Assembly (NCBI GenBank): GCA_038222225.1
Contig: JBBRHV010000001.1
Coordinates: forward strand, 13,864 to 77,863
Direction: 5' to 3'
DNA length: 64,000 bases
Source: Candidatus Omnitrophota bacterium
GTDB lineage: Bacteria > Omnitrophota > Gorgyraeia > Zapsychrales > JANLHA01
In this document: one piece after another, positions 1-18,100 of the stretch
How the letters are laid out: each line of letters starts with the position of its first letter
Position numbering within the stretch: position 1 is the first letter of the stretch
Position numbers and translations under genes: made by a program
The notes under the pieces: model-generated
What the model saw: only the letters and a program-made list of their open reading frames with translations
Told to the model about the DNA's origin: nothing
Database searches by the model: none

Positions 1-3000
1 GGGTCGGGATGACGTGAGTGATGCGTTTAAGGTGACAGTTGATGAGGCTACGCCGGCCTATCCGGTGAAGTGGAACACGCTAGAAACGCTGCCGGACGAC
101 CGGCAGGAGGTCGATCCTGTTTCTGGTGGAACCGTTGCCGCGGCCCTTACGGCGAATTTTGTGAATCCGCTTGAAGAGCGGTTCCGTCCCCAGGATGCCA
201 GTGGTTTTTACAATCAAGATGATCAAGCCGGCCAGTTTCCTTTGTTTTATAAAATCCGGGACCAGATTGAATTGCCAATGCTTGGTCTTGTCGCGCAGCC
301 CAATTCATTAAATTGTATGTGGTGGAACCGTACTGATAGTCCTTGTACGGAAGGAATTCTTCCGGATCCGGACGAACAGTTCGTGCTTCCTTATCTTCTG
401 GGAGCGAACGTGGAATATGGGGGCGTTGTTGTTTTGGCCGATACTTTAGCGCCGTTGCTTTATGAAGACTATGCCGGAGGGAACGTTTTTAGGGATATGG
501 GCTTTTATGGCGGTCCGGACAAGGTCGGGACGATTGGTTTAGAAAGGCTGTTTGCAGATGACACGATATGTGCCGAAGTGGCAGCCAGACCGGTTCTCGG
601 GCTTTTTGTCGGTGAAACGCCAGCACAAAGTATTCAGAGTAATGCGAATTTTCCCGGATTTAAGCCGGGAACAGATTTTTATTGCTCGGAAAATTATCCC
701 TATGATGCCCATTGCCGAAAAAATGATCCGGCTGGGGGATGTGTTGAAGTAAGAACCTTTCAGAGAATCGTCGATGGCGTGACCCCAATTCAGTGGGAAA
801 CGTATAGTCAAAGTTTTCCAGTTGATTGCTCTTGCGGGGAGACGGCCACCGCGCACCCCACCAAATGGCCAGACGACATTTTGGATTCTTTTTATCGTAA
901 AATCACAGAGCTAGTGGCGTTGACCAATGAATTGAACTCACTACAGGCGCGTAAGCTTTTGACTACGACATTTGCAGATTGGTACGATAACGTAGCGGAT
1001 TGGATTGAGCCTGCGTATAATAAAGCGGCTTGTGAAGCCGCGGCTAACCCGGCGACTGACCGGTCCTGTCTGGAAACGTACACGAAAAAAGAACGATGGG
1101 GACATCTTTGGGTTTTCCGGGAAGACTTTAGGGAAATTTTTCAGATATTAGAATCTTGGCTCAACAATGTGGAAGATATCACCGATGCTGTCCCGGTTCC
1201 AATCAGCTATCAGGGGGGCAGTTGCGGGGAGGCATGGTGTCTGCCCGATCCGGACTGTGTGATGCTGAAACATTCTAGCGGGGTGGGGCAAACCAAGGAA
1301 GCGCTTGGATATGATACGCCTGTTAAAGACGGAGTCTATGACGCCAATGATGATGGTTTGGATGCTGTTATCCAATGTATGGAATGGGCCGAGACGGCGC
1401 AAGTTGAAAGCTTGACGGTTCCAGGAACCTATTTGCCGGATGTGGGCGTCCAAGGGTACTATATCGCGTGCCTCAATCATTGCGGCACCGCGTATTGTGA
1501 TAATCTGCCGAGGCCGTTTGTTCCGGACTATAAGGTGATTACAACTCGACCGATCGATGCTGATTGGAGGATGCCTTTAGCGGCCGTTGATATGGGAGGT
1601 TACCAAAAATGTCTGAGCTCGATAACAGTGGATCAGTGCATGGCTGCTACCCCCGGAGATACGACGGAGTGCGCGGATACGCCGGGGTTTGCTAATTATG
1701 ATCCGCCAGACGTGGAATATACTGATATTATCGGTCAGTGGACGCCGTGTTTAGGCCTTCCAGTGGTAGCAACGGCGTGTGATGGCGGGACGCCTTGGGC
1801 GTCACTCCTTATTACCTGTGCGACCCCTCGGGAAGACATTGATTTGTGCATGAGAAACCGTTTGAATTCCTGTGGGTGGATTGTTCCCGGAGGAGACACG
1901 AGTTTTTATGACGCCATGATCTTATCGACGGATTGTTCTCCCGGGATTGCCGGGGTTGTGCCGGAGAGTCCTTATCGTAGGTGGCTGAAAGCGAACATTG
2001 CTGTTGCTGATCCTTTAGTGGTTGTGGCGAAGCTTGCGATGCGCAAAAAGTTTTTGATTGCTGTGCGCGATGAAATCGAAGAGGCCCGCAACGGATTTAG
2101 AGAGGCGTATAACCGGCTGACAGAATTTTTAGACAATGGGACAGTCTTTGGTACAGCCATGACATTTAATCAGCCTTCGAATCCTAATCCGTGTGAGGCC
2201 GATATGGAGGCTCAGATTGTCCTTCCGGGCACCCCTACGGGATATGCCGATACGGCTGCTCCAGCCGTTCCGTCCCCGTATCGCCGTCTGGACTCGTTAT
2301 GTGATACAGTACCCTGTAAGATAAGATTTCCATATTCTAACCGTACGGAGGTGCATGGAGGGACTTCATTTACTGGCACCAATCAAGATTCTCCGTCAGA
2401 AATGTTGATCAGGGTGCGGACAATGCAACAGCAGGCGGCCGATGTGGATTATCAAGACTCCGGGCTTCCGGCGTTTGCCATTTATGTTTGGCGGGGAGAC
2501 GCGGAGACGGATCCGGATTGGATGGCTAACGGCGTAATGCATGGGGAAGGGCTTTTGCACGCGGTTAAAGTAGACGCCAGGGTACCTCGTCGCTGTAGAG
2601 GCAGATGTGACTTTTATGGCCAGGGGCCCATGGAGTGGCCGAAAATTGAAACATTCACAACCGGCTTTTTAGGCTCTACGCGCTGTTATGAGCTCCGCAA
2701 TTATTTTGGGATGACCAAAGCGCGCGTCATTCGTTTTGACCAATCACCGAACATTTCAAAGCTTAAATTGTTTAATAAAATCCCTTTTGTTCTTCCGAAT
2801 CTTTCTCATCCGGATGTGGGGACTGGACAAAATATTACGGGAGGGAATGTATTTAGAGTTGGCGGCACGCCGGGGATCTGCGAACAGTATGTCGATCCGC
2901 TTATTATACAGCCGGGGATCTGCGAACAGTATGTCGATCCGCTTATTATACAGTTGATTGCAAACAATGTCCCTCCGACGGTAGATCCGGATTTTCAAAG

Positions 3001-3265
3001 CATACAACAAGCTTTTATGATCAATTGGCCGCCGACAGGCTTGGGCCAACCATGGGGCTCATTGACTGCGGCGCAGCAAGCTGATCTAACCTGCTGGAAT
3101 TTTGTGCATGAGAACATTCTAAGGTACGGCGTGGTCAGCCATAGCTGCGCAAATTATTATTGGGGGGGACCCGGAGGCGCTGGCTATGGCCAACAGGGGA
3201 TGAGGGTTAAATTTGCGCCTTGCAATCAGACATTTATTGAAAGCGGGGATCTGGATGTCCACTAA
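1..3265 (+). CDS. Cys-rich hypothetical protein, probably 5'-partial. The first in-window start is GTG at 14 and the frame is open back to base 2. There is no recognisable catalytic domain. It contains an in-frame 42-bp duplication.
   Basis: The ORF track gives 14..3265 (1083 aa). The frame has no stop upstream to the window edge. It shows coding-like composition and many Cys/Gly/Pro residues. It lies directly upstream of tad genes on the same strand. Confidence 0.65.
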   Translation, partial: GRDDVSDAFKVTVDEATPAYPVKWNTLETLPDDRQEVDPVSGGTVAAALTANFVNPLEERFRPQDASGFYNQDDQAGQFPLFYKIRDQIELPMLGLVAQPNSLNCMWWNRTDSPCTEGILPDPDEQFVLPYLLGANVEYGGVVVLADTLAPLLYEDYAGGNVFRDMGFYGGPDKVGTIGLERLFADDTICAEVAARPVLGLFVGETPAQSIQSNANFPGFKPGTDFYCSENYPYDAHCRKNDPAGGCVEVRTFQRIVDGVTPIQWETYSQSFPVDCSCGETATAHPTKWPDDILDSFYRKITELVALTNELNSLQARKLLTTTFADWYDNVADWIEPAYNKAACEAAANPATDRSCLETYTKKERWGHLWVFREDFREIFQILESWLNNVEDITDAVPVPISYQGGSCGEAWCLPDPDCVMLKHSSGVGQTKEALGYDTPVKDGVYDANDDGLDAVIQCMEWAETAQVESLTVPGTYLPDVGVQGYYIACLNHCGTAYCDNLPRPFVPDYKVITTRPIDADWRMPLAAVDMGGYQKCLSSITVDQCMAATPGDTTECADTPGFANYDPPDVEYTDIIGQWTPCLGLPVVATACDGGTPWASLLITCATPREDIDLCMRNRLNSCGWIVPGGDTSFYDAMILSTDCSPGIAGVVPESPYRRWLKANIAVADPLVVVAKLAMRKKFLIAVRDEIEEARNGFREAYNRLTEFLDNGTVFGTAMTFNQPSNPNPCEADMEAQIVLPGTPTGYADTAAPAVPSPYRRLDSLCDTVPCKIRFPYSNRTEVHGGTSFTGTNQDSPSEMLIRVRTMQQQAADVDYQDSGLPAFAIYVWRGDAETDPDWMANGVMHGEGLLHAVKVDARVPRRCRGRCDFYGQGPMEWPKIETFTTGFLGSTRCYELRNYFGMTKARVIRFDQSPNISKLKLFNKIPFVLPNLSHPDVGTGQNITGGNVFRVGGTPGICEQYVDPLIIQPGICEQYVDPLIIQLIANNVPPTVDPDFQSIQQAFMINWPPTGLGQPWGSLTAAQQADLTCWNFVHENILRYGVVSHSCANYYWGGPGGAGYGQQGMRVKFAPCNQTFIESGDLDVH
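2870..2953 (+). repeat. Perfect 42-bp tandem duplication (2 x ccggggatctgcgaacagtatgtcgatccgcttattatacag), in frame, duplicating the peptide PGICEQYVDPLIIQ.
   Basis: Direct reading gives copy 1 at 2870-2911 and copy 2 at 2912-2953. They are identical. Confidence 0.9.
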
Positions 3266-3307
3266 GAGTTTTCGAATAGCACTCTTGTTATTAGATCGAG
3301 AATTGAT

Positions 3308-3670
3308 ATGATACTATTACGGAATAAAAAAAATAAATCGCGAGGAGTAACAACCGTTGAATATTGCGCGCTGGTTGTCATGATTCTGTCTGCGTTTTGG
3401 TTTGGACTGCGCGGATACATTCAGCGCGGAATGCAGGGTCGCTGGAAGGCGGCCGGAGATGCCTTTGGGCAGGGAAGACAATTTGAGCCAAAGGGCGACG
3501 GCGCGGTTTCAAGAACAGAAGAGTGTTTTTATAGTGAAGAGGTCCACAAATGGGTTGATTTAGAATGTTTTGAAACGGATTGTGACTGCACGAAGGAAAA
3601 CGATGATGCTGATTATGCGACAACCTGTCTTGCATGTATGAACAAGCTCGCGTGTCTGTGCACTTTTTAG
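3308..3670 (+). CDS. tadE: TadE/TadG-like Flp-pilus minor pseudopilin (TadE-like N-terminal motif) with an unusual Cys-rich C-terminal half.
   Basis: The N-terminus is MILLRNKKNKSRGVTTVEYCALVVMILSAFWFGL. This matches the TadE-like signature, a basic leader followed by G-x-(T/A)-(T/A)-VE-(Y/F)-ALV and a hydrophobic helix. It is 120 aa and directly precedes tadB/tadC. Confidence 0.6.
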   Translation: MILLRNKKNKSRGVTTVEYCALVVMILSAFWFGLRGYIQRGMQGRWKAAGDAFGQGRQFEPKGDGAVSRTEECFYSEEVHKWVDLECFETDCDCTKENDDADYATTCLACMNKLACLCTF

Positions 3671-3700
3671 GATAAGGCTTATGGGGGGAGAAACCGATAG

Positions 3701-4558
3701 ATGTTTGTTTTGGCGTTATTTTTCTTTTTTACAACCTGCGTGATCGTCGGATATTGGATCTTACCTTCGGCATATCGTCAATCAATTGCTTTGAACCAAA
3801 AACGGGCGCATCAGCTGTCGTCGAAGCTCGAGAGGGTGATTCCCCGGGCGCAGATTAAGCAGGTTGTTCAGATGTATCTGCTGGCTCCGCTTTTTTTGGG
3901 GGGATTGTTTTATGCTTTTTTTCCTGAAAAAATGCAGGTTTATGGAGCGGTCATCGGAGTGGTCTTTGGTTTCATCTTCCCGTCGATCTACACACAGTTT
4001 TTAATTGCATCCAACAAACAAAAATTTGGCGACCAGTTGATCGATGTTTTGATGATCATGTCGAGCTCTTTCCGCGGGGGCTTAAGTTTAATGCAGTCCA
4101 TGGAAGCCGTTATTGACGAAATGGGAGATCCGTCCAATCAGGAGTTTTCCACCGTTTTAGGGGAAAACAAAATGGGGGTTTCTCTTGAAGAGTCCTTTGA
4201 GCATTTGTACAATCGTCAGCCGTCATCGTCGCTGCAGCAGATGGTCACGGCGATTCTTTTGGCGCGTGAAACGGGCGGGAACTTGCCGGCGATTTTTCAG
4301 CGGATTGTGGAGGTGATCCGTCAGCGCAAACGCATCCAGGGGCAGATTGAGACCTTGACGCTTCAGGGAAAGATTCAGGGCATTGTTATGGCGGCATTGC
4401 CGGTCGTGTTTTTCGCCTGGGTTTCAGGGATCAACCCGGACCATTTTAAGATCATGTATGATACGCCGGTTGGGCGCAATCTTTTGGTGGTGTCATTTCT
4501 GCTAGAAATTATCGGAGCGTTTATGATTTGGCAGATCAGCTCCTTAAAGGATTTTTAA
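3701..4558 (+). CDS. tadB: TadB-like Flp pilus assembly inner-membrane platform protein (T2SS-F / GspF-like domain).
   Basis: It is 285 aa with an N-terminal TM helix. The central segment DQLIDVLMIMSSSFRGGLSLMQSMEAVIDEMGDP...LARETGGNLPAIFQRIVEVIRQRKRIQGQIETLT is typical of the T2SSF domain. A C-terminal TM helix follows. A GGGGAG SD-like motif sits upstream. Confidence 0.75.
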   Translation: MFVLALFFFFTTCVIVGYWILPSAYRQSIALNQKRAHQLSSKLERVIPRAQIKQVVQMYLLAPLFLGGLFYAFFPEKMQVYGAVIGVVFGFIFPSIYTQFLIASNKQKFGDQLIDVLMIMSSSFRGGLSLMQSMEAVIDEMGDPSNQEFSTVLGENKMGVSLEESFEHLYNRQPSSSLQQMVTAILLARETGGNLPAIFQRIVEVIRQRKRIQGQIETLTLQGKIQGIVMAALPVVFFAWVSGINPDHFKIMYDTPVGRNLLVVSFLLEIIGAFMIWQISSLKDF

Positions 4559-4576
4559 TTTTATAAGAGGGGAACT

Positions 4577-5458
4577 ATGCTTTTTATTGCCGCGTTATTA
4601 TGGTTTTTGTGCGCCTTCAGTTTTGTCTTGGGGCTTTTTCCTCTGGAGATGGAGACCCGCCCGACATTGCAGGCCTTCGGCTATGAGTTGCGCCCGACGA
4701 AAAAAAGAAAAAATCCGTTAGCGATCATCCGCTTGATCGCGATGTTTAACCGGCCGTTTGTTGGGTCAGGCAAGCTGCGGGAAAAAATTCTTAAAGAACT
4801 TTCCATGGCCCATGTGAATTTAACGCCGGAGGAATTCTGGCTGTTTAAAGAAATTTCAATTGTGGCGATGCTGGTTTTTACATATCCTCTGATTGAGCCG
4901 GATTACCTGATCATGTGGCTGCTGTTATGTGTGTTTTTCGGATATATGCTGCCCGAGTATTGGCTGCGCGGAAAGATTAAAAAGGTGAAAGGCGTTATTT
5001 TGAAAGAACTTCCTGATGCCGTTGACCTTTTGGGATTGTGCGTGAACGCCGGGTTAGATTTTATGCTGGCTTTGAAGTGGGTTGTTGAAAAATCGCCGCC
5101 ATCGATCATGGTCAGTGAGATGAATATTCTGCTTCAGGAAATTAATGTTGGAAAAACCCGACGGGACGCCTTAAAAGCGCTGTCTTCCAAGTATGATTTG
5201 CCGGATCTCTCAACATTTACGCGTACTTTGATCCAGGCCGATAAAATGGGAACGTCGGTTTCCGAGGCGCTGATCATTCTTTCGGAAGACATGCGTCTGG
5301 CCCGTTACCGTCGGGGTGAACAAATGGCAATGAAGGCGCCGATGAAACTATTGGTTCCGTTGTTGTTTTTTATTTTTCCGGTGGTCGGTATTTTGGTCGG
5401 GGGTCCGATCTTCATTCAATTTATGACCGAGAATCCCATGAGTCGTATTGGTGGGTAA
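4577..5458 (+). CDS. tadC: TadC-like Flp pilus assembly inner-membrane platform protein (T2SS-F / GspF-like domain).
   Basis: It is 293 aa with an N-terminal TM. The segment LPDAVDLLGLCVNAGLDFMLALKWVV...LIQADKMGTSVSEALIILSEDMRLARYRRGEQMAMKAPMKLLVPLLFFIFPVV is T2SSF-like. An AGAGGGG sequence lies 5 nt upstream of the ATG. Only 18 bp separate it from tadB. Confidence 0.75.
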   Translation: MLFIAALLWFLCAFSFVLGLFPLEMETRPTLQAFGYELRPTKKRKNPLAIIRLIAMFNRPFVGSGKLREKILKELSMAHVNLTPEEFWLFKEISIVAMLVFTYPLIEPDYLIMWLLLCVFFGYMLPEYWLRGKIKKVKGVILKELPDAVDLLGLCVNAGLDFMLALKWVVEKSPPSIMVSEMNILLQEINVGKTRRDALKALSSKYDLPDLSTFTRTLIQADKMGTSVSEALIILSEDMRLARYRRGEQMAMKAPMKLLVPLLFFIFPVVGILVGGPIFIQFMTENPMSRIGG

Positions 5459-5586
5459 TCATCAAAAGGAGGGGCTTCTCCGGTCTGGTGCAGTCGATGT
5501 GGCAGTATTTGGTCTGATGAGTTCTTTGTTTTACCTCCAAAAAGAAAAAAGGGCCTGGCGGATTAGCGCACTTTTGTTTTGCGCGG

Positions 5587-5619
5587 AAGGATTCTTTTGT
5601 TTCAAAAGGAATCCTTTCG
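5587..5619 (+). terminator. Candidate hairpin downstream of tadC. The stem GGATTCTTTTG pairs with CAAAAGGAATCC with a one-base bulge and a TTT loop. It is followed only by TTTC.
   Basis: Near-perfect inverted repeat read directly. The weak U-tract lowers confidence that it is an intrinsic terminator. Confidence 0.35.
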
Positions 5620-5718
5620 GCAGAAGGCGCAATTTAAAGGTTTGCTGTTTGAGTAAAAAGGGGACCCTGTAATTAGAGAAGAGGGCTTGAGAAAAAACTG
5701 AAGTTTAAGCAAGATAAT

Positions 5719-5780
5719 TAATGTCCAAAAAATGAAAAATGTCCAATCAGAGAGATAAAAAAAGTTTTTAATGTCCAAAG
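5719..5780 (+). repeat. Three direct copies of (T)AATGTCCAA at 5719-5729, 5738-5747 and 5769-5780 in the leader of the giant gene. The reverse-complement TGGACA half-site recurs at 6011-6020, 6101-6107 and 6140-6146.
   Basis: Direct reading of the intergenic region. This is a candidate operator or iteron-like set of sites. Confidence 0.4.
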
Positions 5781-5920
5781 AATGTGTTAAATTCATGTGT
5801 TCCAGGGGGTTTTATTATATATAAGAAAACATTTATTTGTCCTCGAGAAAATAGTTTTCAAAAAGAACGCAACTCGCTAAAAACAAACAACTTGTTTCCA
5901 AAAAAAATCTTTGAAAAAAT

Positions 5921-5949
5921 TTGTTGCATATATTGACAGGTGGTATACT
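5921..5949 (+). promoter_or_regulatory. Sigma70-like promoter. The -35 is TTGTTG (5921-5926). A 17-bp spacer follows. The extended -10 is TGgTATACT (5941-5949).
   Basis: Sequence match to the TTGACA-17-TGnTATAAT consensus. It sits in an AT-rich intergenic region, 177 nt upstream of the giant-gene ATG. Confidence 0.45.
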
Positions 5950-6036
5950 TTAAACACCTAGCCCGGAGGAAAGTGAGTTAAATTTAAGAAACCGCTTTAC
6001 TTAAGTATTTTGGACAATTCAAAAAAATCTTCATAG

Positions 6037-6064
6037 ACCGCCTTTCCGGCGGTTTTCTTGTTTG
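6037..6064 (+). terminator. Intrinsic-terminator-like hairpin inside the 5' leader. Stem ACCGCC / GGCGGT, loop TTTCC, followed by TTTCTTGTTTG. It is a possible attenuator or the end of a roughly 100-nt leader or sRNA transcript.
   Basis: A GC-rich 6-bp stem plus a U-rich tract lie about 90 nt downstream of the predicted -10 and about 60 nt upstream of the ATG. Confidence 0.4.
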
Positions 6065-6125
6065 TAGAAATCCTTCCGGCTAAAAAACTAACGTACAATC
6101 TGGACATAAAAAAGTACCCACTTTT

Positions 6126-9100
6126 ATGAATGACAGAATGGACATAACTCCACAGGCCCTTCGTGCGGCTGCTTCTGAAGGTTCAGAGCAGGCGGAGATG
6201 CCTATGTCTGATAATGTCCAGAGTGATATATATATATCTAATCCTCAGCGGCCATTTAAAAGCCGTTTTAAGGGTTGGCTTCGTTTAGTTGCTGCTGTTG
6301 TGGTTTTTGTGTTCCTTCCTGAGCAAATCAGCTGGGCCATGAGTTACAATCCGGCGGTTTTATGGAGTGCGCAGCCGATTTCGCTGAGCGGGATGCCAAT
6401 TTCCGCACCAACCGGTCCGGCGTTAGAGCTTCAGCTTCCGCAGCAAGAAGCCTCCGAGATGCTGGCGACCAATATTCAGAGCCTTTTGAGCCGCGCGGCT
6501 CAGGAAGGTAATCGCAATTTGGAGATCCAAATTGCATCTCCCGACGAAAAAGAGTTCCGCAATATTGACGGGCTTCGTGTTTCAGCCAAAACGTCTTTAA
6601 GCCAGGAAAAGATTCAAGAGGCGGTCCGCTGGCTTCGTCAGCCGGAAATTCACCCGCTAAACTGCGGTGTTTTTGCCCTGTATGAATTCTTAAAATTAAA
6701 CAACACTCCGATCTCTCTGGAACAGGCCTCTTTATCGACGCTGTCCATTGACTTGCTTTCTGACATTGTCAAGCCGGGAGATGCGACGCTCAAGACGTCT
6801 TTGTACGCCATCGATAAAGTGGTTTCGCTTTATCAGCTGGAGTATGCGGTCATTAAGCTGGACCCCAAAGAGATCTTGAAACTGAACGCTCCTTTTATTG
6901 CGAATTTCGGAAAAGAACATTTTGTGACCGTCACGGCGCTTGATGAACAGGGCGTTCACATGCAGGACACGGGCGTCGCGCGAACGCTCTCTCAGCCGGA
7001 ATTTTTGGAAAATTTAAGCGGGTATGTTCTGATTTTAACAAAGAATATCCCGATTTCTGTTTCTTACCAAGATGTCAGTGACGTTGAAAAAGCCTTTGTT
7101 TGGGGCGACCGCTGGGTAGACCAATCCGACGAGTTGCCTGGATTATTAGGAGATGTCGGCGCAGCGTGGGCCCGCGCCGGTATGCAGGTTGCCATTTCGG
7201 TCGCTATTACGGTTGTGACCTTTGGTCTGGGATGCGCCATGGCCGTAGCGAGAGACGGCGTTCTCCTGGCCACCGAGCTTGCCAAACTCTTAATGCAGGT
7301 CATTGTTTCTGTGGCCCTGATCGGTATTTCGGAGCTGGTCAACACCATCAATCAGATTGCTGTTTTGAACGGCTGGTGGGATGAAGATGTCGGCTTCGTC
7401 ATAGGAATCGTTATCTCCACGGCCTTGTCGGTGGGGGCGGGCATGTTTGCCGGCGGCGCGGCGGGTTCCCTTGGGGCATCCGGCGCTACAGGAGCGGCGT
7501 CACAGACAGGGTCAGCCATCGGCGGCGCGGCGTTTGCCGGATTAGGCACGGGTATCTCAAATGTCCCTTTGACTTTTGCCAGAAGCTTTGCCCAAGCGCT
7601 CGTCGTTGCGATTCCCAAGGCATATCTTGCCAGGGAGCTGTATGAAATCATTGATATTGACGATCCTATTTTAAAATCAGCCGTGGTGGGGGTCTTGTCA
7701 TCCGTCGGAACCACCATTGGGTTGGTGGGGCTGAGTTTTGGCCTTGACCAAATTGGTTTAAATTCTGTTAATGGGTTTATGGGCATAAATGTCGCCGATT
7801 CTTTTACAGAATTTCTGAAAGATCTCGGTAAAAACGTGGGGCGCACCGTTGCGGCTAATGCGCTGGCGGTCGGGTTAAGATATCTCGCTTTGGAGATTGA
7901 TGATGAAACGTTTGCCGCCGACACCTTGGCGTCGCAGGCCATCGGACAAGTGGGGCAGGCCTTCGGCGGATGGATTTTTGATATGGCGGTGAGCGGATCA
8001 TTGCCGCAGCTTTTTGCCGGGGAGGTCCAGAAGGGGCAGATGTTTCAAGACCCTGGCTCTGAAAAGATGGAGGTGCAGGCGCAGGAGCTTTTTGTGACCA
8101 GGTCAGACGGAACGCCTGCTCGTCTTACCATGGAAGATCCGGGTCGATATACCTATACAGATACTGCAGGGGAGACGGTTTTTCTTAAGCCGGGGGAGGT
8201 GGTCGAGACAGTGCCATTGGAAAGAAACGACGCCGGTCAGTGGGTCCCGCAAGGGACTGCGGATAATAAGAAGGACGACAGCTCCTCTTCAAGCATGAGA
8301 ACTCCCACACAGTTTATGAATGTAAGGACCCATCAGCCGGTCCAAATCGCCGATTTCACAAAAGTTACGACACAGTATTATATAGCCGATAAAAAGGGGA
8401 TGCCGGCCTTTGTCGAGTATGATAAGGCAAGCGGGAAAATTACCATTCCCCAGAAAAGCGTTGACCAGTTGAAAGCCGATAATTTCCTGAATTTAGATGC
8501 TAACACCAAGTATTCTTTGCTCGAAGGAAAAGACAAGAATGGGAACCTGCAGCTGGGTTTAGGAAAAAGCTGGTTTTGGGGGACGCTGACGACAAAAACT
8601 TTGACGTCATTGGTGGGGGTTGCGTTGGCGTTCGGCATGGATCGTCTGGAAGATAAATTTATTGGTAAAGATGATCAGGGGCAGAAAGACAAGTTCCAAA
8701 CGCTCGGGTTTCGGCTGATGGCTTTTCTTGGAACGGCCTTATCAGCGGAAGCCACTGGAGCGCTTTCGCGTTCCATGTTTTCTGCTCCGAGTGGGACAGG
8801 TCTTAAGCCGGGTACGGATACGATCAGTCCATTTGGCGGTATTTTCATGAGGAGCGTAGAGAAGCTTGCATTAGGGATCAACGACAGCATGTTCAGAGCT
8901 AACGGCGCGATGCCGAAAGATTGGGATTGGAGTAATGGTGAAACGTTTAAGTTTGGGGGCGACGGAGTATCACGATATCGATATCAAGCAATAGATCAAA
9001 TGGTGCGTTTTTACGAAGGGGCCGGGGAAAGCGCCGGTTGGGGCTTGGATTCCTATTTTAAGATCAAAGACCTTCGTAAGCAGCTGGAAGGGGAGCAAGA

Positions 9101-15100: not shown

Positions 15101-18100
15101 AATGCTGAATGTTTTAAAACGCACGGAGTATAAGGATGCGGGCATATTAAATGAAATGATCCAGCTGGTTAAGCAAGGGAAAGATGGAAATAGCGGCTTT
15201 GGAGAGATGGAGGATTCCGCCAAATTAGCTGTGCTGGTTTTAGTTGCCGCGATGACTACGGGAAAGACAGACTTGATAAGCAATTTGGATAAGGATAATG
15301 CAGCTGTGAAGTTTTTAAAGCAGATGGGTTATCAACCCGGCATAGAGCTGACAAAAGTTGCCGAAGAATTTGCTAAGGCTTTTGATCTTTCAGATCCGGC
15401 GTTGACTGATAAGCAGAAAATGGAAAGGGCTTCGGGCCTTGCCCTTCTCACCAGTATCGGCAACACGATGAAAGGCGAAGATGATGCCGAGAATGCTTTT
15501 GAATTTATTATTCGAAATTCTGACGCGCTTAAAAACAGTAATTTGTTTTCTCCCAAGCAGGCAGTTTTGAATGAGTTATCTGAAAAAATAAATGTTCTTC
15601 AAAATTCAAGAACGAAAGACGCAAAAACAGGAGAGTTTAAACGTATAGGTTTGACTGTGTTTTCGGCAGATGCTTTGCAGGCTTTAGCGGATTTTGGCAG
15701 GGACCTTAGGGCATCAGTTGAATTGAACAACAAATTGACCGATGCCGGGATTTCTTTCGCGGATCGGGTTTCATTATTAGGAGAAGTCGACAAGCTGCAG
15801 ACGGAAAAAGGCGCAGATGGAAAAGCACTAAGCCCGATAGAGATCGTTGTGAGCTTGCTTGGCGGCGGGCAGAGGGCGCAAATTGCTAAAGTGTTCGGTA
15901 ATCAAGGACTGAATGAAACATTTTTGGATCAAGCGGTGCAGACCTATCAAACAACACAGCGCCAGGCGAAAGAAATAGAATTTATGAAGTTGGCGGGATT
16001 GATGATTTCAGAGGGACCGATCAATAAAGCAAATATTTCTGCGGATAAAGAAGGAGATCCTACTAAGGCGATCTTAAACGTTGACGCAACCAAAGGGCAG
16101 GGATTGTGGATCGCGTTTGGCGCTCCGCAGCAGAATCGTTTAGAAGCCTTTATGGCATCGCTTGCCGGCGGTAATGAATATGAGCTTTCAAAGGCTTTAG
16201 ATGCGAGCGGGATTTCAGTTAAGCAAAAGGAAGAGATTCAGCAGGCGGCTTCTGCGTTCAGTGAAGTGATGGCAGGAGCTGAATATACAGGTGTCAATCC
16301 GCAAGAGGCCTTTGCAAAACTTTTTGTCTCGAAACTTTCTGACGGTACCCTGCAGGCTTTGACCAGTGCAGGTGTGATTGATAAAATTGCACGGATTTCT
16401 AATCCAATCTATGACCAAAAGCAGCTGAATGTGAATTTCAATCCGCTCTTGGAAGGATCTGTGTTTACCAAAGGCGAGCCGGCAGGAACGCCTGGGATCA
16501 TGATTGCGCGCGATGATTTTTCGGGGATCAGTTCAGTTCTAAACAGCGGAGCAGTAACCATTAAGAACGGCATGTTCTTTATTCAAGAGGCAGGGCTTCG
16601 AACCACATCACCGATTTACGCGCCCGGCGTGATCGGACAGATGAAGAATGTGATCAATTATAAAGAAGGCGCGCCTGTCAGCGCTTCTTCGGTCGGCGTT
16701 CAGTATTCAGACATGATGACATCACAGGGCACAGAATGGAATGTTAATTACGGGCTGATCGCCATGCTTAAAGACGGTACTGCTTTCGGTACGTTTGATT
16801 TAGTAGGCGCAGATAAATATCAGCAGGATTATCTTTTTGTTCCGCAGGATTTTAAAGTGTCAGAAGGCTCGATGGCGTCTTTGGCGCAGGGTGAGAACGG
16901 TTGGACTCAGACCCGTTTTGCTGACGGCGCAACACTGAAAGGGGAATTTTTCGGCGGATATATGTCAAAGGATGGGCTTTTAAGCAGCGCAGTTTTGTAT
17001 GGAAAAGGCCCGTTCTGGGAACGGGTGAAAGAAACGCCGACTGGTTATACCCCACGCCAAACGAAAGATATGAATCTGGCAACTCTCGCCATGGTCGAAG
17101 GCGATAACATTATGGGCAATAGCAAGACTGATGTTAAAGAAGCGTATACCCGTTTTACGACGCCGGATAAAGACACGATAGTATCTGCCGTTCCGATGGA
17201 TATCGGACCGGATGGAAATAAAGCATATACGGCCATGGCTGAAAACGGCACGCGTTTGGTGTTTGCTCTTGGCTCCAAGGGCCCTGACGGTGAAGGCTAT
17301 TTTACCGGCATGCTTCGCCCGGATTTCAGACGGCCGGGAAGCTTGCATTTGTTTTCTAAGGATACAGTTCTTTACGATAAAAAAGGCAAGCTTGACCTGT
17401 CCAAGGCGATTATTCAATTTGTTAAAGGCCGCGGAAAATATCAAACCGATATTGGTAATTTCTTAAACGCAGCAGTGGATGAAATATTTTTATCAACAGG
17501 AGTTAAGCCGGGCGTGTCTGTTCGTGAGGGCATGTATGCTTACGGGCGGCTGCCTAGTTCAGAAGCAGTTATACCTAAAGGAAGAGAGGCGCCGGAACAT
17601 TTCGATACAACCGGTACACCTGCCGATGTGCTGGTTGGTCAAGTCTTTACGGAAGACGGCGGAAAATATTTCGGAAAAGGCTTTTTAGGGCGGTTTACGG
17701 ATAATGCGTTTGTTGGTCTTGCGAAGCAGCGGTCATTTCATGGCGATCTGGCGCAGAACGATATTCCTAATTGGCTTGGTTTTGAAGAAAAAGGGCTACA
17801 GGTTTTGGGTGAAGGAGGACAATGGCTTGGCGTAAGCAAGGATACATATAAGGCAAGAGTCTATCAGATATCGCTTGCCAAAAAAGAAGGCAAAGAAGAT
17901 GTCTATGTTCCTATTCTTATGAAGGCAATGACGTTTGCAAATGGCTCAGTAAGGCGGGAATTTAGACTGCAGGGCAAGGAGAAAAAAACAGATGCAGAGT
18001 ATGGGAGTCTTGTATTCAAGAAATTTGAATTGAATTCTCTTGTCGCAAAACTTGAGGCGATAATGCCTAAAGAGAATGTGGAGAAAAAAGACAACAGCAT

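Follow-up and report, generated by a model that had tools for sequence, protein, structure and literature searches.

Candidate cis-regulatory region of a giant Omnitrophota gene: a repeated motif, an extended -10 promoter and a terminator-like leader hairpin

The 667 bases (5459-6125) in front of the giant gene described here are best explained as its cis-regulatory region, the gene being an Omnitrophota giant gene with a C39-peptidase type of N-terminus. The elements of the region, namely TGTCCA/TGGACA sites, a promoter and a terminator-like hairpin in the 5' leader (Table 1), are present, go beyond what chance would give, and have kept both position and sequence in dozens of related lineages. 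Judging from the sequence, we hold with modest confidence, slightly above even, that operator arrays for a DNA-binding regulator and a promoter-proximal conditional terminator together control the gene. Binding of a protein to the motif, termination at the hairpin and regulation of read-through are inferred.

The stretch of DNA analysed, here called the window, is 64,000 nt long. The giant ORF runs from ATG 6126 without a stop up to base 64000, that is, over more than 19,291 codons within the window. Its neighbours in the window are tad genes, and a 120-aa ORF nearby reads as a Flp/TadE-type prepilin. No DNA-binding Pfam domain was present in the neighbouring genes, and no regulator candidate was found in the neighbourhood. 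For comparison we used 68 non-redundant loci that encode relatives of the N-terminal part of the giant protein (identity 30-70%), and a Candidatus Omnitrophota MAG supplied the nearest of them; these loci share phylogeny, so counts over them overstate the independent support. The N-terminus M-x-[DEN]-R-[LM]-D is kept in about 26 lineages.

An earlier note on this DNA had described most of these features, and all of them were found, with coordinates off by 1-2 nt at most: the three direct repeats lie at 5720-5778 (given as 5719-5780), the inverted TGGACA sites flanking the start at 6011, 6101 and 6139 (the last given as 6140), and the GC stem with its U-tract at 6035-6064 (given as 6037-6064). 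Compared with the related locus L002, identity is 80-100% in the leader, 75-80% in coding sequences and 0-45% in 5459-5715, and this phylogenetic footprint makes the array, the upstream blocks, the promoter and the leader stand out over diverged intergenic DNA.

Table 1. Features of the region upstream of and around the start of the giant ORF (positions in the window)
Feature	Position	Strand	Remarks
Three direct AATGTCCAA repeats, proposed operator/UAS array (AATGTCCANTCTG array)	5720-5728, 5738-5746, 5770-5778	+	Exact matches
Block TTATTATATATAAGAAA (5812-5828) and box TCGAGAAAATAG (5843-5854)	5812-5854	.	85% identical to L002, where neutral intergenic DNA has diverged
Box GCAACTCGCTAAAAACAAACAACT	5870-5893	.	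Counterpart in relatives CGTAACnnATTGAAAAnAAACAAC; 50-75 nt 5' of the -10 in many loci
Sigma-70-type promoter	5921-5949	+	-35 TTGTTG 5921-5926; 17-nt spacer; extended -10 TGgTATACT 5941-5949
5' leader, ~170 nt	5956-6125	+	More conserved than flanking coding sequence
5'-proximal segment CACCUAGCCCGGAGGAAAGUGAG...AAACCGCUUUAC	5957-5999	+	Predicted stem-loop (MFE); 100% identical in L002
TGGACA site in leader (TTTTGGACAATTC)	6011-6016	-	14-nt context identical in L002, both flanks differ
Terminator-like hairpin, proposed attenuator terminator	6035-6064	+	Stem 6035-6042 / 6048-6055, loop TTTCC, T-tract TTTTCTTGTTTG
CCTTCCGG, second copy of the terminator-loop sequence, 3' of hairpin	6072-6079	+	Repeat families D6, I2; kept in L002
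TGGACA site (CAATCTGGACATAA), 25 nt 5' of start codon	6101-6106	-	-17 to -35 site in many lineages
Start codon of giant ORF	6126-6128	+	Protein begins MNDRMDI...; without Shine-Dalgarno
Full motif CAGAATGGACATAA across codons 3-8, +13 site	6134-6147	-	TGGACA core 6139-6144
TAATGTCCAGAG, +89 coding-region site, in the orientation of the upstream array	6212-6223	+	TGTCCA 6215-6220; complementary to 6099-6107

A motif repeated around the start of the giant gene

Seven TGTCCA/TGGACA hexamers occur in 5459-6260, compared with a mean of 0.28 and a maximum of 4 in 20,000 dinucleotide-preserving shuffles. The excess is local, since the whole 64-kb window holds 31 hexamers against 25.7 expected and shows no over-representation. 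The array of three repeats, about 165-225 nt 5' of the -10, is kept in L002 although the flanking intergenic DNA is unalignable. Sites are spaced by 14-21 bp within arrays and by 31-52 bp around the start, with no helical phasing; the window array itself, with a core of 9-13 nt, has irregular spacings of 18 and 32 nt. The repeats had been called iterons, and we have dropped this label together with the idea of a replication origin: no replication gene is present, GC skew is positive on both sides and does not switch, and the repeat spacing is irregular, where origin iterons are evenly spaced units of 17-22 bp beside a rep gene or an AT-rich unwinding element. DnaA boxes were rejected as well, as their motif differs.

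The repeats are also conserved in related loci, where they are enriched around the start: across the 68 loci hexamer density is 3.49/kb within -900 to +150 of the start and 0.58/kb elsewhere. The conserved element is longer than TGTCCA. It reads AA-TGTCCA-N-TCTG (about 13 nt) and is sometimes a 15-bp palindrome. In its extended form TGTCCANTCT it matches 124 times in 74.8 kb of start-proximal sequence and 19 times in 525 kb of other sequence, an enrichment of about 46-fold; the majority of those 19 are found shortly past -1000. Clusters of two to four sites, mostly 150-300 nt 5' of the -10, are found in most of the 68 loci, and the flanking-base preference is alike in upstream-array and coding-region sites. 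Thus a specific motif is over-represented and conserved in orthologous regions, as an operator array is defined, and the comparison supports the view that TGTCCA/TGGACA sites are conserved specific elements of the sort expected of regulator-binding sites. A literature search for a TGTCCA operator returned nothing relevant.

The motif even constrains the N-terminal peptide of the protein (codons 4-7), a clear case that extends across many lineages. At the +13 site every R-[LM]-D lineage uses the codons AGA (AAA for Lys), xTG, GAC and Axx, while in the rest of the gene the shares of AGA, xTG and GAC among the Arg, Leu and Asp codons are 23%, 40% and 32%, respectively. A further TGTCCA is present at +68 to +116 in 14 loci, with differing flanking codons. 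Palindromic instances are TGTCCAGACTGGACA (L059) and TGTCCAGTCTGGACg (L004), and AATTTCCAGTCTGGAAATT is a variant in L058 and L069; such palindromic sites are typical of dimeric DNA-binding proteins.

The arrays and the start-proximal sites are anchored differently. The arrays keep their place relative to the promoter, and those of L004 and L018 lie beyond the terminator of the upstream operon, so the arrays are not part of the mRNA. The start-proximal sites keep step with the start codon and not with the promoter, and this, together with a predicted RNA helix, means that some of the signal may work at the RNA level. In that case UGGACA (-25/+13) would pair with UGUCCA (+89), instead of or besides any role in DNA, and the long-range helix enclosing the start codon, which lacks a Shine-Dalgarno, would control translation initiation or mRNA stability. 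We regard this as rather unlikely. The MFE fold of 6080-6240 does close with 6099-6107 / 6214-6222 (z = -2.95, 1/200 shuffles), equivalent helices are predicted in L004 (z = -2.27) and L002 (z = -1.73), and of 9 lineages that are roughly independent, 7 have a complementary variable base N in the paired sites, against about 3.4 expected (an estimate, p ~0.02). However, opposed copies of any 13-nt motif are complementary automatically, L002 favours another pairing partner than the window, and the upstream arrays, 5' of the promoter and behind a terminator in the two loci mentioned, are left unexplained, while palindromes in DNA that is not transcribed speak for a protein that binds DNA. It was also considered that the upstream array could give a sense sRNA complementary to the mRNA start; this is unlikely, as the array comes directly after the upstream operon's terminator with no promoter between.

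Opposed copies of the motif flank the promoter (for example 5765-5777 / 6101-6113, 13 nt, 92% complementary, I6) with an IHF-like box between them, and they could in principle bound an invertible promoter segment subject to phase variation. This is extremely improbable and was rejected: a reversed promoter motif was seen in 0 of 68 loci, the region is the same in L002 and in nine contigs of differing sample origin, the window shows no recombinase gene close by, and there are several sites per side and one more in the coding region. Sites for a DNA-binding regulator remain the reading that we prefer for the motif.

The promoter and the leader

The sigma70-like promoter with an extended -10, proposed in the earlier note, is borne out by the sequence and conserved in relatives. 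Its -10 hexamer TATACT (5944-5949), with TG at 5941-5942, ends 177 nt before ATG 6126, and A-tracts lie 5' of the promoter at 5900-5919. The -35 matches TTGACA at 3 of 6 positions, and relatives have CTTGCC at a distance of 16-17 nt; a generic promoter scanner missed the promoter because of this weak -35. The sequence TGnTATACT is present in 54 of the 68 loci, and when both strands of 600 kb are counted it occurs 54 times upstream of homologues against 7 times in all other places; the promoter is 95% identical to that of L002. Transcription would start at about 5956, as placed from the promoter.

Between array and promoter, the block and box at 5812-5854 are possibly further protein-binding sites, and by eye TCG(A/T)CGAGAAA-like boxes were seen at a similar place in L016, L023, L031, L054 and L055. 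A minus-strand promoter-like match from 5843 to 5814 also falls within this conserved block. The relatives' counterpart of the box at 5870-5893 appears to resemble, on the reverse strand, the IHF consensus, and the box itself may be a site where the DNA bends between array and promoter.

At the other end of the leader, the sequence 5' of ATG 6126 bears out that the giant ORF lacks a convincing Shine-Dalgarno; the tadB and tadC genes just upstream carry GGGAG and GAGGGG. ATG 6204, with GGAG upstream, was tried as an alternative start and rejected, as it is not kept in L002 and the N-terminus from 6126 is conserved.

The hairpin in the leader, AGACCGCC / TTTCC / GGCGGTTT (6035-6055) followed by TCTTGTTTG, begins 86 nt after the -10. 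It has a stem of 7-8 pairs, 5 of them G-C, a loop of 5 and a stability of about -11.4 kcal/mol, and the T-tract, interrupted by C and G, stands directly 3' of the stem. It thus has what is demanded of an intrinsic terminator in sequence (a stem of at least 5 pairs, a loop of 3-8 and a T-tract), and among the sites listed as terminator-like for 3000-9000 it has the most stem and G-C pairs. L002 has the same stem and T-tract, and the loop there is 1 nt shorter by deletion. The window-type leader occurs in two versions in our data, those of the window and L002, and their stems are identical; 15 further contigs reached through TadC homologues were each identical to L002 or had other leader types.

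The whole-leader fold is no better than shuffles (z = -0.55). Candidate alternative pairings in the window are GGAAAG (5969-5974) with CUUUCC (6042-6047) of the terminator loop and AACCGC (5989-5994) with GCGGUU, with no sequence variation between the two versions, and a convincing antiterminator was not found in the window's own leader. L004 carries CCTTTCCGC, similar to the second loop copy of the window, 5' of the start.

In relatives the hairpin recurs at a fixed distance from the promoter. Among 40 loci whose leaders measure 120 nt or more, 29 have a terminator-like hairpin that starts 86-135 nt after the -10, and the density of terminators is 2.0/kb in leaders and 0.15/kb in coding sequence. 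About 30 relatives share a common leader RNA that Rfam does not contain; it has a GCCACGG loop, and its terminator covaries. In the terminator stem 97% of cells are paired, 7 of 9 pairs show compensatory changes and 0 of 500 shuffles are as good. An alternative helix that overlaps the 3' arm of the terminator is 78-79% paired, compared with 31-47% in slid controls, and 1-4 of 500 shuffles are as good, which is moderate support. Taken together, the recurring promoter-spaced terminator, the covarying stem and the alternative pairing in relatives fit attenuation. Two other readings of the relatives' leader were rejected. A leader peptide from a conserved ATG about 9 nt before GCCACGG fails, as all three frames occur and close relatives have no ATG; a CsrA-type GGA site fails, as GGG often stands in place of GGA and GCCACGG is invariant.

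The window leader belongs to the same gene family and has the same promoter and terminator distance as the relatives' leaders. By eye the 5'-proximal segment resembles their GCCACGG loop (GCC-CGGAGG / GCCACGGA), and the hairpins can be set side by side (GACCGCC-UUUCC-GGCGGU / GACUACC-..UUUCCGC-GGUAGUC), but covariance models built from the relatives give the window no significant score. With the model R1 of the GCCACGG-loop leader, the whole-window search gave no match and the window scored 6.1 bits (E = 0.18 in 1 kb, filters off), while seed and non-seed relatives score 27-80 bits. With the model R2 of the terminator (GRCURCC...GGYAGYC), the whole-window search again gave no match, and the window hairpin scored 7.5 bits (E = 0.38 in 1 kb). 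In Rfam 15 the best match of window 5300-6400 was 21 bits against a gathering score of 57, and among the relatives there were 0 hits in 20 at the gathering threshold and nothing credible in 6 at E up to 1.

A strong promoter with a terminator-like hairpin 86-135 nt behind it, as seen in many lineages, would also suit a stand-alone sRNA of about 100 nt (~5956-6064), with the giant gene using its own downstream promoter; the 5' half of the leader is 100% conserved relative to L002, and a -10-like TACAAT lies at 6095-6100. We consider this very unlikely. The promoter-hairpin unit is always in the sense direction and immediately 5' of the giant gene in the 68 loci, no conserved second promoter exists between hairpin and start, where the context of the -25 site varies by lineage, and 6056-6115, after the hairpin, is as conserved as the part before it. 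A match in Rfam is also absent.

The hairpin could instead be non-regulatory: a constitutive terminator that leaks, a structure that stabilises the RNA, or a chance fold in a leader conserved on other grounds. Its short stem and interrupted T-tract, and the leader fold no better than shuffles, agree with this, and of about 14 leader differences between the window and L002 about 1 falls in the hairpin, which is not unusual (an estimate, p ~0.3); moreover, the leaders of L012, L013, L084 and L089, of 160-175 nt, have no terminator. Nevertheless, the positional regularity and the covarying stem and competing helix in relatives are hard to explain without function, and we find this reading quite unlikely.

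Attenuation or repressor control had been thought plausible in the earlier note. The recurring terminator with a covarying stem in relatives and the conserved specific sites speak for it; what did not stand is TGTCCA alone as the motif, which is about 13 nt.

Proposed two-layer control and known systems

The control that we propose has two layers. In the first, at the DNA, a sequence-specific protein would recognise AA-TGTCCA-N-TCTG, or in some lineages TGTCCAG-N-CTGGACA. It would sit on the three-site array about 200 bp 5' of the strong extended -10 promoter and also on the opposed sites around the start codon (-115, -25 and +13) and on one at +89, and the outcome could be repression by looping out the promoter and leader, or activation from the upstream array. 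In the second layer, at the RNA, transcripts from about 5956 would meet the terminator-like hairpin some 80-110 nt later, and only RNA polymerases that pass it would transcribe the gene of more than 58 kb.

Multi-operator DNA looping, including operators in coding regions, is known from lac, gal, ara and deo. As in lac O1/O2/O3 and these other systems, opposed copies of the motif lie upstream, near the start and in the coding region and enclose the promoter and leader; the window differs in its mostly asymmetric motif with one strong half-site, in the lack of helical phasing and in that activation is possible. The palindromes of L059 and L004 have the same 7-1-7 geometry as TetR-type 15-bp operators (tetO), which is a lead only, as they do not resemble tetO in sequence, no gene of the TetR family is close by, and most sites have one half only. 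For the second layer, terminator/antiterminator leaders and riboswitch platforms likewise carry a promoter-proximal terminator-like hairpin in the 5' leader, and in relatives the upstream GCCACGG loop and its flank are complementary to the loop of the terminator and to the bases that open its 3' arm. The differences are that no Rfam family was found and that the window leader is without a clear antiterminator.

Processive antitermination elements (RfaH/ops, LoaP leaders, EAR of Bacillus eps, lambda nut and HK022 put) are similar in having a promoter-proximal element at a fixed distance, then a terminator, in a very long unit with no Shine-Dalgarno, but none has a sequence match in the window. 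For ops (GGCGGTAGnnTG), the window sequence GGCGGTTTTCTTG matches the first 6 bases only (GGCGGT) and the relatives' GGTAG covaries as an RNA stem, and we rejected it. In a more speculative reading, to which we give little probability, the leader and the non-template copies of the motif around the start would be the loading site of a processivity or antitermination factor, such as a NusG paralogue or a protein binding the GCCACGG-loop RNA, enabling read-through of the leader terminator and then transcription, and coupled translation without a Shine-Dalgarno, over at least 58 kb. If this were true, giant genes would have a specialised system of elongation control, and the 13-nt motif would be both a DNA operator and an RNA or non-template-strand signal, strong enough to fix codons 4-7.

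Meaning for the giant genes of Omnitrophota

The giant genes of Omnitrophota rank with the longest on record: up to about 85,000 codons have been reported, and a 2026 preprint gives 147,155 aa. The accounts consulted describe their domains and neighbouring secretion genes, and the words promoter and terminator do not occur in the main texts of these accounts. The region described here offers an initial view, open to test, of how a gene this costly may be switched. It also gives concrete handles on the question of how a gene of 60-250 kb is transcribed, translated and finished: a motif with which to fish for the regulator and its regulon, a promoter with a leader terminator, and, in relatives, a covarying leader RNA that is new to Rfam.

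The giant gene and its neighborhood

The giant ORF runs from ATG 6126 (+) to base 64000, where it is still open, with more than 19,291 codons lacking a stop; residues 224–307 match Peptidase_C39. Cysteine occurs only 16 times among the 19,291 residues. The best genome match of the protein is a Candidatus Omnitrophota MAG, with 70% identity across the first 600 aa. The gene and neighborhood in the window match the giant Omnitrophota genes of West-Roberts et al. (bioRxiv 10.1101/2023.11.21.568195), for which a C39 domain at the N-terminus and, upstream, a conserved type-II-secretion-like locus are reported. The terms "promoter", "terminator" and "intergenic" are absent from the main text of that preprint, and promoter, terminator, leader and riboswitch are all absent from a 2026 preprint on Omnitrophota long proteins.

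The tad-like locus upstream is headed by a large protein (14–3265, +, 1083 aa), whose counterpart in L002, the nearest relative of the window, has 1474 aa (L002:2784–7208); neither has a credible Pfam match. The N-terminus of the following 120-aa protein (..KSRGVTTVEYCALVVMIL..) reads like a Flp/TadE-type prepilin, which suits such a locus. Between the TadB/TadC-like genes and the giant ORF lies an A+T-rich spacer of 667 nt, in which G+C falls to 29%. In two relatives (L087:1939–2631 and L088:2115–2807, −), tadC and the TGTCCA array are separated by the insertion of a Y1 transposase gene of the IS200/IS605 type. No Shine-Dalgarno sequence precedes the giant gene, in line with the earlier note, which had seen no convincing one, though tadB and tadC each have one.

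Features of the window and of related loci (L-numbers)
Feature	Position	Strand	Remark
120-aa protein ORF	3308–3670	+	no Pfam match; precedes TadB/TadC-like pair
Two T2SS-F/TadB-TadC-like genes	end 5458		domain matches
Direct repeat AATGTCCAA	5720, 5738, 5770	+	exact matches
TCGnCGAGAAA-like box	between array and −35		by eye
Box CGTAACnnATTGAAAAnAAACAAC	between array and −35		by eye
Promoter TTGTTG - 17 nt - TGgTATACT	5921–5949	+	
TGGACA inverted sites	6011, 6101, 6139	−	hexamer search
Terminator-like hairpin	6035–6055	+	followed by TTTTCTTGTTTG
Extra TGTCCA	6215	+	hexamer search
GCCACGG leader RNA	L016:5553–5673; L041:429–534; L019:674–778		about 27 more loci
Tandem modules or adjacent GCCACGG copies	L025:5489–5747; L039:5596–5872; L045:1106–1348; L055:5784–5890		

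Conserved motif sites and promoter

One genome locus, seven protein homologues with contigs and 74 metagenome loci were reduced to 68 non-redundant loci, each encoding a relative, 30–70% identical, of the N-terminal 600 aa. Comparison with L002 works as a phylogenetic footprint. Positions 5459–5715 are unalignable (0–45% identity), so neutral intergenic DNA has fully diverged. Identity is about 70% in the three upstream repeats, about 85% in block 5812–5865 and 80–100% in the promoter and leader (5896–6125), above that of the flanking coding sequence (75–80%).

The three direct repeats and the inverted TGGACA sites of the earlier note are all present, together with a further TGTCCA. The hexamer shows no excess over the whole window (31 observed, 25.7 expected), while 5459–6260 alone contains seven; 20,000 shuffles of this stretch averaged 0.28 and never exceeded 4. 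Among the 68 loci, TGTCCA/TGGACA reaches 3.49 per kb from −900 to +150 of the start and 0.58 per kb elsewhere. Aligning the sites lengthened the motif to AA-TGTCCA-N-TCTG, with flank preferences that are equal in the non-coding upstream arrays and the start-region sites and missing from background copies. The extended form TGTCCANTCT has 124 matches in the 74.8 kb around starts, compared with 19 in the remaining 525 kb, and the majority of these 19 fall just past the −1000 limit.

A typical array comprises two to four sites, mostly in TGTCCA orientation and mostly 150–300 nt upstream of the −10. Around the ATG the motif is reversed, with one copy near −24 and another at precisely +13, and a further site, at +68 to +116, is again TGTCCA. 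Codons 4–7 of a conserved N-terminal peptide, M-x-[DEN]-R-[LM]-D-[IKN], make up the +13 site, and AGA (AAA for Lys), xTG, GAC and Axx are the codons there in all lineages that have the peptide. Elsewhere in the giant gene AGA makes up 23% of Arg, xTG 40% of Leu and GAC 32% of Asp codons, so selection acts on the nucleotides. The peptide itself may matter too, since L016 and L082 keep a similar one with other codons.

Perfect or nearly perfect palindromes of 15 bp occur among the sites (L059, TGTCCAGACTGGACA; L004, TGTCCAGTCTGGACg). L058 and L069 lack TGTCCA and have in its place, about 250–330 nt upstream of the gene, the palindromic variant AATTTCCAGTCTGGAAATT. This suggests that the motif and its regulator changed together. 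In L004 and L018 the array directly follows the terminator of the upstream operon, placing the arrays outside the mRNA. The sites thus read as putative operators for a regulator that would bind DNA as a dimer and drift in specificity between lineages; the neighboring genes include no candidate for it.

Because opposed copies are complementary, the mRNA is also predicted to close a helix around the start codon (6099–6107/6214–6222; z = −2.95), and L004 and L002 have comparable predicted helices. The variable base N agrees between partner sites in seven of nine roughly independent lineages (p about 0.02 by our own estimate). Such a helix may add translational control; it cannot account for the upstream arrays. 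A palindromic (TA)n run, GATATATATATATC, lies in the coding region just 3' of the +89 copy (6225–6240, +) and is not kept in L002.

The extended −10 promoter that the earlier note had proposed is borne out: TGnTATACT, with CTTGCC 16–17 nt upstream and A-tracts, precedes the homologue in 54 of the 68 loci and occurs only seven times elsewhere (600 kb, both strands). Two more boxes recur upstream of it in the relatives, and that of CGTAACnnATTGAAAAnAAACAAC resembles an IHF site on the reverse strand. A minus-strand promoter-like site (5814–5843; AGGACA, 18 nt, TATAAT; 10 of 12 bases) is directed at the repeat array from within the block 85% conserved with L002, where its −35 is not conserved.

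The TGTCCA repeats had been called iterons in the earlier note. There is no rep gene, the repeat spacing is irregular and no skew switch is seen, and both iterons and a replication origin were rejected accordingly. An invertible promoter was likewise rejected (reversed in none of the 68 loci; nine contigs identical), as were ops/RfaH, CsrA sites and a leader peptide.

Terminator-like leader hairpins and the GCCACGG RNA

The GC stem and T-tract noticed in the leader are present, and this hairpin ranks top in stem and G-C pair count among the terminator-like sites listed in 3000–9000. The fold of the whole window leader does not surpass shuffles. Across the loci, leader length varies from 27 to about 690 nt, and 29 of the 40 leaders of at least 120 nt contain a terminator-like hairpin starting 86–135 nt after the −10 (86 nt in the window), independently of total length. 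Such hairpins reach 2.0 per kb in leaders; the figures are 0.70 for leader antisense, 0.42 for sequence upstream of the promoter and 0.15 for the sense strand of coding sequence.

About 30 relatives share a leader RNA of three parts, a GCCACGG loop motif, a linker and a terminator, which always lies upstream of giant-gene homologues and matches no Rfam family. GCCACGG never varies and usually occupies a hairpin loop; a stem closes around it in 22 of 29 cases (mean z −1.67). The terminator stem (GRCURCC/GGYAGYC) has 97% of cells paired in an alignment fitted to that stem, with compensatory changes in 7 of 9 pairs and no shuffle equaling it; an unfitted MAFFT alignment gives 5 of 9. Moreover, the 3' part of the terminator loop, together with the first three 3'-arm bases, is complementary to GCCACGG and its 3' flank. 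This alternative helix is 78–79% paired (31–47% in slid controls; equaled by only 1–4 of 500 shuffles), its flank shows compensatory changes AU/UA/CG, and as a candidate it would compete with the terminator. Some lineages have two leader modules or two GCCACGG copies, adjacent in L055 (AAAGCCACGGAAAAGCCACGGAAAAAG), suggesting that a trans-acting factor binds more than once.

By eye, the window leader resembles these RNAs (GCC-CGGAGG vs GCCACGGA; hairpin GACCGCC-UUUCC-GGCGGU vs GACUACC-..UUUCCGC-GGUAGUC), and GGAAAG at 5969–5974 is complementary to its loop CUUUCC. Covariance models of the GCCACGG-loop leader (R1) and of the conserved terminator (R2), built from relatives without the window, give it 6.1 and 7.5 bits, and searches of the whole window with both did not find it; it was therefore not filed as a family member and counts as an analogue in the equivalent position. 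All reachable sequences contain just two versions of the window-type leader, and their stems are identical. Inside the giant ORF, R1 has a match of 18.3 bits (E = 0.03) at AAAGGCCGCGGAAAA (17404–17493, +), which resembles the loop variant ACCGCGGA of L044 and L063 with no terminator stem after it, and is probably a chance match. The leader also has a Shine-Dalgarno-like GGAGGAAAG followed by the two-codon mini-ORF GUG AGU UAA (5965–5982, +); in L004 the matching position downstream of the promoter (about 8262–8282) reads GAGGAACGUG GCC CGU UAA.

A control region of C39-type giant genes

Regulator binding, conditional read-through and terminator activity of the window hairpin are steps of control that we infer from sequence. 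The observation in the earlier note is real and applies more broadly: C39-type Omnitrophota giant genes have a conserved control region that had not been described before. Its elements are of familiar kinds, namely operator arrays, a strong promoter and a leader terminator; what is new is the particular motif and the leader RNA of the relatives.
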